Source of the DNA: a virus
Strand: one strand, 5' to 3'
DNA: 64,000 nucleotides
IMG/VR virus record: IMGVR_UViG_3300029288_006769
Span: 122,367-186,366 of that record
Part shown: positions 60,839-61,008 of the stretch, in pieces
Position numbering within the stretch: position 1 is the stretch's first letter
Layout: each line of letters begins with the position of its first letter
Made by a program: the position numbers and the translations under genes
The notes under the pieces: generated by a model
The model's input: the letters and a program-made list of their open reading frames with translations, nothing else
The model's database searches: none
Told to the model about the DNA's origin: nothing

Positions 60839-60910
60839 TGGGCCCGGGGAGATTTGAACTCCCGACCTACCGATTAAAAGTCGGTTATTCTACCACTGAA
60901 TTACGAGCCC
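60839..60910 (-). tRNA. tRNA-Lys(UUU)
   Basis: acceptor GGGCTCG/CGGGCCC, arm ACCGA-CTTTTAA-TCGGT. Confidence 0.7.
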
Positions 60911-60921
60911 GGCAGATTTAA

Positions 60922-61008
60922 TGGGCCCGGCAGGATTTGAACCTGCGATGGAGTTATGCACTCTCCGGATTAAAAGTCCGGTACCTTCGACCGCTAGGTG
61001 ACGAGCCC
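60922..61008 (-). tRNA. tRNA(UUU) variant with extra variable stem-loop (Lys-like acceptor, type-II-like)
   Basis: same acceptor as the adjacent tRNA-Lys; arm CCGGA-CTTTTAA-TCCGG; inserted GAGTGCATAACTC hairpin before the T-arm. Confidence 0.5.

Follow-up and report, generated by a model that had tools for sequence, protein, structure and literature searches.

Two tRNA genes with the anticodon UUU lie in tandem on the minus strand of the analysed window, a stretch of 64,000 nt that we treat as part of a huge phage or a phage-like element. The downstream gene is an ordinary 72-nt class I tRNA-Lys(UUU) (60839-60910), and the upstream one is an 87-nt tRNA(UUU) (60922-61008), with an 11-nt spacer (60911-60921) between them. 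ARAGORN calls both as tRNA-Lys(ttt) (60839-60910 and 60921-61009), and the Rfam tRNA model RF00005 places them at 60839-60910 (74.4 bits) and 60922-61008 (61.6 bits), against a gathering score of 29. Two further Rfam hits on the genes, YrlA (27 bits against 69) and Plastid-ycf2 (28.6 bits against 65.7), fall far below their thresholds and were dismissed. Read on the minus strand, both genes begin with GGGCUCG and end with CGGGCCCA, sharing all 7 acceptor pairs, A73 and the anticodon loop CUUUUAA, but their D-arms, anticodon stems and T-arms differ. Neither encodes CCA. An earlier note had described this pair, the shared acceptor stem and anticodon loop, the different D-arm and the inserted hairpin of the 87-nt copy, and this observation proved right in every detail, except that the genes are on the minus strand, so that the copy it called second is the upstream one in transcription order.

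The 87-nt gene has a 7/5 acceptor/T architecture and folds into a clean cloverleaf, with the conserved U8, A14, G18G19, U33 and T-loop bases of a tRNA. Its D-arm (60983-60999), ACCU-AGCGGUCGA-AGGU, has a Ser/Tyr-like loop with C at position 16, and is followed by the anticodon arm CCGGA-CUUUUAA-UCCGG (60965-60981; anticodon at 60972-60974). The 18-nt variable region, versus 5 nt in a class I tRNA-Lys, contains the hairpin GAGU-GCAUA-ACUC (60951-60963; 4-bp stem, 5-nt loop) and an unpaired CAUC spacer (60947-60950), together GAGUGCAUAACUC-CAUC, the last two bases of the spacer corresponding to U47-C48 of class I Lys tRNAs. The T-arm GCAGG-UUCAAAU-CCUGC follows, and then the acceptor 3' strand CGGGCCC with A73 (60922-60929; A73 at 60922), identical to that of the class I neighbour. 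The minimum-free-energy fold keeps the extra hairpin (z = -2.96). The gene thus has the stem-loop variable region of class II tRNAs, but not their 3-bp D-stem with an unpaired 13:22, since U13-A22 pairs here, nor one of the Leu, Ser, Tyr or Sec anticodons to which this architecture is confined in bacteria. A third lysine gene, a class I tRNA-Lys(CUU) (61312-61386, minus strand), has a closely related acceptor stem (GGGCUCA/UGAGCCC, A73).

The pair belongs to an array of 25 tRNA genes called by ARAGORN between 43 and 62 kb, all on the minus strand. The window has 34% GC and encodes a DnaE-type polymerase (phrog_405, E = 2e-245), HNH and DUF559 homing endonucleases scattered among the tRNA genes, ThyX, ParB, NadE and NUDIX proteins, and an RNA ligase (46292-47311) inside the tRNA region. 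Proteins identical to those of the window occur on contigs of 422-424 kb from JGI sample 3300037067 and on a contig from sample 3300014205. The same NadE protein is labelled "Candidatus Nanoarchaeia archaeon" at NCBI, but genuine DPANN contigs that matched our DNA pattern carry dispersed, intron-containing archaeal tRNAs that are not family members, whereas the array in the window is intron-free and of bacterial type. We therefore treat the archaeal label as a probable binning error.

A megablast of the region against GenBank phages found no match, an exact 27-nt pattern of the arm gave no hit in IMG/VR, and a search for related loci with the neighbouring 231-aa protein found no relatives. The long tRNA is nevertheless identical in a second sample (locus L001), and a metagenome scan with a sub-lineage pattern found 13 contigs. 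One of these, L236 (111.6 kb), is a true relative, whose copy of the neighbouring 211-aa protein is 82% identical; a protein search with this neighbour had found a single homologue, on a contig copy of the same relative ending 167 bp past the gene. The tRNA order of L236 matches that of the window: His, Tyr, Lys(CUU), Phe, Leu(GAG), Leu(CAG), long Lys(UUU), short Lys(UUU), Val, Trp, Ser. There the long tRNA is 87/87 identical, while the spacer between the two genes carries two differences and the class I Lys and tRNA-Leu(GAG) each carry changes. The window has also lost 40 nt of tRNA-Leu(CAG), leaving a 3' stump at about 61074-61122, a real tRNA pseudogene about 65 nt upstream of the long gene. 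Other contigs carry diverged orthologues with the same GGGCUCG acceptor stem and different but still paired arm sequences. The earlier note had proposed that a low score or absence from related genomes would count against the long-arm gene, and neither was observed.

The long-arm gene is one member of a large family. A degenerate pattern that can only match a UUU loop followed by a long gap before the T-loop retrieved at least 119 loci from IMG/VR, in which ARAGORN finds 101 long (81-94 nt) tRNA(UUU) genes, 92 of them distinct; 38 of these 92 have an adjacent Lys tRNA. The same pattern in 596 Gb of cellular genomes gave 101 loci, of which only 33 hold such a tRNA, roughly two-thirds of these in tRNA clusters on MAG contigs. 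A solitary chromosomal copy recurs in several Actinomycetota MAGs, and the surroundings of one such copy showed only housekeeping genes (PPK2, oxidoreductases) and no functional clue. Cultured phages have them too, for example Serratia phage BF (tRNA25, 87 nt), Erwinia pEa_SNUABM phages, Xanthomonas X1, BUDD and XacN1, the Caulobacter phiCbK group, Rhodobacter RcXuper and Microcystis Mwe-JY26. Lengths of 87-91 nt were read in the two records examined in detail, Serratia BF and phiCbK, the others being BLAST matches. In the 6-kb phiCbK tRNA cluster examined, both the AAG and the AAA tRNAs are long (88 and 91 nt) and have U73. Where a feature is annotated, it reads just "tRNA-Lys", and the Xanthomonas BUDD match has no annotated feature.

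Together with the copies from the cellular genome scan, 119 distinct genes were parsed. Their variable region usually consists of one unpaired base, a 3-5 bp stem, a tetraloop (GNRA in 51 of 70), and an unpaired 3' spacer of 3-4 nt (89 of 119), most commonly CAUC (30 of 119), the region ending in UC in 70 of 119. Ser arms in the same phages have 5-7 bp stems and a 1-nt spacer, and Leu arms a 1-2 nt spacer, whereas Tyr arms, with a 3-bp stem and a 3-nt spacer, are the closest. On a 14-sequence seed, the arm helix is 96% paired and all four of its pairs change on both sides. A covariance model built from this seed (R1) scores the window gene at 95.7 bits and aligned 82 distinct sequences from 99 viral loci. 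In this alignment, 95% of cells pair and 24 of 25 pairs show compensatory change, the arm helix is 92% paired with all 4 pairs covarying, and pair 13:22 is mostly unpaired (49 of 82). None of 500 shuffles reached the observed values, and slid registers drop to 37-49% paired. This is a maintained RNA structure.

The earlier note's interpretation was partly supported: it rightly took the pair as tandem tRNA(UUU) genes, one with a true long variable arm, and rightly stated that Lys tRNAs are normally class I, but of the two readings it offered, a duplicated and diverging gene is not supported as decay, and a change of aminoacylation identity is unlikely although not excluded. The tandem arrangement, the identical acceptor stem and the nearby tRNA-Leu(CAG) pseudogene might have suggested a decaying duplicate. 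Yet the gene is under purifying selection, all its stems are intact, it is identical in a relative whose flanks differ, the family covaries strongly, and it shares little with its neighbour apart from the acceptor stem and anticodon loop, so that this reading is effectively refuted.

Which amino acid the tRNA carries can only be inferred from sequence, and lysine is the best inference. UUU plus A73 is the complete E. coli lysine identity set (PMC9976931). Acceptor stems differ widely between genomes, yet the acceptor stem plus discriminator of the long tRNA is closest to a co-resident Lys tRNA in 45 of 59 cases, against about 11% expected by chance, with a mean identity of 8.9 of 15 positions to class I Lys, 6.6 to Tyr, 6.5 to Leu and 4.2 to Ser. 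The Serratia phage BF copy has the 5' acceptor strand of the enterobacterial (E. coli) tRNA-Lys, GGGUCGU. Long-arm Thr(UGU) genes keep G1-C2 and U73 (42 of 43) and long-arm Asn(GUU) genes mostly keep G73 (34 of 45); the arm thus travels with cognate acceptor marks and appears identity-neutral. In NadE, AAA codons align with conserved Lys in 9 of 11 columns, the other two being Glu, and never with Tyr, Ser or Leu, and we therefore rejected a reassignment of AAA, which is the commonest codon of this genome (6.7%). On the other hand, the body is Tyr-like, and A73, U35 and G1-C72 overlap the Tyr identity set. About a quarter of the family has U73, unlike most co-resident Lys tRNAs, so that identity may not be uniform. 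Class II LysRS approaches tRNA from the variable-loop side, and a long arm could therefore hinder charging.

A mis-acylating tRNA, by which AAA would be partly read as Tyr, Leu or Ser, seems unlikely, although not excluded. Such a reading would be analogous to nematode nev-tRNAs (PMC3333845, PMC4300185) or bacterial allo-tRNAs (PMC5389517), which also combine a long variable arm with an anticodon for an amino acid other than Leu, Ser or Tyr. But those carry Leu or Ser identity elements and are mis-acylated or non-translating, and allo-tRNAs have 8/4 or 9/3 acceptor/T branches, whereas this family is 7/5, keeps cognate acceptor marks and is mostly viral. The window gene shows A73, U35, G1-C72 and a Tyr-like arm geometry, which overlap the Tyr identity set (PMC9976931), and tyrosine-inserting ochre suppressors carry UUA, one base from UUU; however, G34 and A36 of tRNA-Tyr are absent, and family acceptor stems follow Lys rather than Tyr, Ser or Leu. 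It also lacks the marks of SerRS substrates (G73 or U73, an arm of about 5-7 bp and a 3' spacer of 2 nt or less), having A73, a 4-bp arm and a 4-nt spacer. Misreading of the commonest codon would moreover be very costly. Compared with canonical bacterial class II tRNAs (Leu, Ser, Tyr, Sec), the family shares the stem-loop arm, the Ser/Tyr-like D-loop (AGCGG...GA) and, family-wide, the 3-bp D-stem, but its anticodon is UUU, its acceptor stem matches Lys tRNAs and its arm has a signature of its own, with a GNRA loop and a CAUC spacer ending in U47-C48 as in class I Lys.

tRNA-Lys(UUU) is a repeated target of defence nucleases, among them PrrC (PMC2610378), PARIS AriB (PMC11464382) and a bacterial Schlafen (PMC13056530). 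AriB cleaves Lys(UUU), Thr(UGU) and Asn(GUU) between positions 40 and 41, the second protomer of its dimer contacts D-loop U16-U17, and phage T5's own versions of exactly these three tRNAs are needed to defeat PARIS and rescue infection (PMC12409363, PMC11464382). P2 OLD also targets Thr(UGU) (bioRxiv 10.64898/2026.07.10.737580). The non-UUU tRNAs that score like family members on R1 are Thr(UGU), Lys(CUU) and Asn(GUU). We then scanned IMG/VR with one strict pattern, changing only the anticodon, and found at least 61 true long-arm tRNAs for Lys(UUU), 56 for Asn(GUU) and 50 for Thr(UGU). The three control anticodons, for which long-arm versions are several-fold rarer, gave 24 for Ile(GAU), 16 for Arg(UCU) and 12 for Phe(GAA). 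The Phe genes and about half of the parsed Ile genes have Ser-like bodies, with G73 and a 1-nt spacer, and the Arg genes are mixed. These counts depend on a fixed T-arm motif, and normalising them by class I tRNAs with the same strict T-arm failed, because that T-arm is rare in class I genes; as class I genes, however, the six isoacceptors are similarly abundant.

The arm emerges between position 44 and the T-stem, between the two AriB contact sites, and the window gene has C41 and C16 where E. coli tRNA-Lys has A41 and U16, but keeps U39, which AriB needs in E. coli tRNA-Lys. The RNA ligase gene inside the tRNA region is a further point in favour of a defence link. A comparison of positions 39, 41 and 16 between long-arm and class I Lys tRNAs was uninformative, because the search pattern fixed U39. 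The resistant tRNAs of T5 are likewise phage-encoded, with the anticodons of host tRNAs that defence nucleases destroy, the same trio of isoacceptors recurs, and they are presumably still charged with the cognate amino acid. Yet they are ordinary class I molecules that escape through point substitutions (U39A, A41C, U16C), while the difference here is architectural, a whole extra arm and a class II-like D-arm, and resistance is only hypothesized.

We propose, with moderate confidence overall, that the 87-nt gene is a functional tRNA reading AAA, and AAG by wobble. What the analysis establishes is that it belongs to a large, mostly phage-borne family in which a short hairpin, usually with a GNRA loop and followed by about four unpaired bases, replaces the middle of the class I variable loop; its expression, its charging and the role of the arm are inferred. 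In this view, it would be transcribed with the rest of the array, cut out by the host's processing enzymes, given CCA after transcription and most probably charged by the host LysRS through the UUU anticodon, A73 and an acceptor stem identical to that of the phage's ordinary tRNA-Lys. The arm would change the tRNA surface between the 3' strand of the anticodon stem and the D-loop, which is the surface spanned by nucleases such as AriB. The phage would then keep an AAA decoder when the host tRNA-Lys(UUU) is destroyed, the ordinary neighbour and this "armoured" copy together securing the supply for the most used codon. That this is a conserved, functional lysine-type tRNA of a widespread phage family we hold with high confidence, but that the arm serves evasion is a tentative, if leading, hypothesis, which rests on correlation and on an E. 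coli enzyme.

Common descent through single-base anticodon shifts (UUU to UGU, GUU or CUU), rather than selection by a nuclease, is a live alternative for the Lys/Thr/Asn set. The arm might accordingly be a tolerated, neutral lineage feature of a working tRNA-Lys kept in the 25-gene array simply to supply AAA. We consider this less likely, as the arm helix is kept by compensatory changes across very divergent sequences, with a preferred loop and spacer, and a neutral insertion would be expected to decay or be lost, whereas this one persists next to class I copies in many genomes. It is also conceivable, though improbable, that the molecule is a decoy which occupies tRNA-Lys-directed nucleases or other tRNA-Lys-binding host factors without being used in translation, since its anticodon loop and acceptor stem mimic tRNA-Lys while the body differs, and since inhibition of AriB by competition from overexpressed viral tRNAs has been raised as a possibility by Belukhina et al. 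(PMC12409363). However, in the OLD system a resistant phage tRNA did not protect the host tRNA (bioRxiv 10.64898/2026.07.10.737580), the full 7/5 branch is maintained, as expected for a translating tRNA, and the long-arm form of both Lys tRNAs in the phiCbK cluster suggests that they decode.

Literature searches, and reviews on non-canonical tRNAs (PMC7609411, PMC5389517, PMC9976931), turned up no description of long-arm Lys, Thr or Asn tRNAs in phages, although with incomplete access to the literature this does not prove that none exists, and we regard the family as apparently undescribed with moderate confidence only. Textbook bacterial tRNA biology restricts long variable arms to Leu, Ser, Tyr and Sec, and these findings point to a conserved family of lysine-type tRNAs, with matching threonine- and asparagine-type versions, that breaks this rule and is concentrated in phages. 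If the arm leaves charging intact, tRNA class is more plastic than assumed, and LysRS, ThrRS and AsnRS tolerate a large appendage. It is possible, though not more than that on present evidence, that phages have evolved a distinct architectural class of armoured tRNAs, class I isoacceptors (Lys UUU/CUU, Thr UGU, Asn GUU) rebuilt with a class II-type arm that keeps cognate charging and would sterically block anticodon-arm nucleases of the PARIS/OLD Toprim type, and possibly PrrC, RloC or Schlafen. The arm would then be a new kind of anti-defence device, structural rather than mutational, and a ready-made design for nuclease-resistant tRNAs, and its anticodon distribution would record which tRNAs bacterial immunity targets most often in nature.

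The 3' half of a tRNA-Leu gene was found on the minus strand at positions 61074-61122 of the window, where it duplicates the T-arm and acceptor end of the tRNA-Leu(GAG) gene located at 61131-61215. Based on the alignment with the relative L236, a metagenomic contig carrying a syntenic tRNA array, this fragment is a tRNA-Leu(CAG) gene that has lost its 5' 40 nt in this genome, and it thus represents a fresh tRNA pseudogene about 65 nt upstream of the long-arm tRNA. Another degenerate tRNA remnant may be present at 57018-57100 (minus strand), where the covariance model of the long-arm family gives a weak hit (16.8 bits, E = 0.007) that is called neither by ARAGORN nor by Rfam. 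The tRNA-Tyr(GUA) gene (61395-61481, minus strand) displays an irregular cloverleaf in the ARAGORN prediction, with an extra base after the acceptor stem and an unstructured variable region of 13 nt, and, like four other class II tRNAs of the window, it does not reach the gathering score of Rfam.

A gene encoding an RNA ligase (Pfam PF09414, phrog_548) lies inside the tRNA region (46292-47311, minus strand), together with a gene for a NUDIX hydrolase at 48920-49369. This ligase may fulfil a putative tRNA-repair function, in analogy to T4 Rnl against PrrC. No kinase-phosphatase partner was identified in the adjacent ORFs. We also found genes resembling HNH and DUF559-type homing endonucleases interspersed among the tRNA genes (41880-42722, 50138-50692, 52395-53327, 59768-60526, and 61480-62085, all on the minus strand). 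A homing endonuclease (SegB) has recently been linked to the amplification of anti-defence tRNA loci in phages (PMC13096335).

A protein 100% identical to the NadE encoded at 26520-28202 (minus strand) is labelled "MAG: Candidatus Nanoarchaeia archaeon" at NCBI, where it belongs to a contig of 424 kb. Yet, the gene content is phage-like, including DnaE, homing endonucleases, and a bacterial-type tRNA array devoid of introns, whereas genuine DPANN contigs look different. The whole genome is therefore probably that of a huge phage that has been mis-binned.

Some viral tRNAs with a clearly Ser-like body (a GGAG... acceptor, G73, an arm of 5-7 bp, and a 1-nt spacer) were found to carry anticodons for Ile (GAU, in the viral loci L319, L343, L347, and L348) or Phe (GAA, in further viral loci retrieved with this anticodon). 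These are candidates for mis-acylating or anticodon-shifted Ser tRNAs, and are distinct from the Lys-type family. Within the family itself, both Lys tRNAs (CUU and UUU) of Caulobacter phage phiCbK (L239, positions 2974-3157) are of the long-arm type and have U73 instead of A73, as does about a quarter of the family. In 13 of 19 pairings, long tRNAs with U73, a sub-group of uncertain identity, sit beside class I Lys tRNAs with A73.

A solitary long-arm tRNA(UUU) was detected in six contigs from Actinomycetota MAGs (L139, L140, L141, L151, L153, and L179). Its acceptor stem (GCCCCUG...A) appears to resemble that of mycobacterial tRNA-Lys, and the gene sits in a chromosomal context, with PPK2 and oxidoreductase genes, rather than in a tRNA cluster. 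The family of long-arm tRNAs is therefore not strictly viral.
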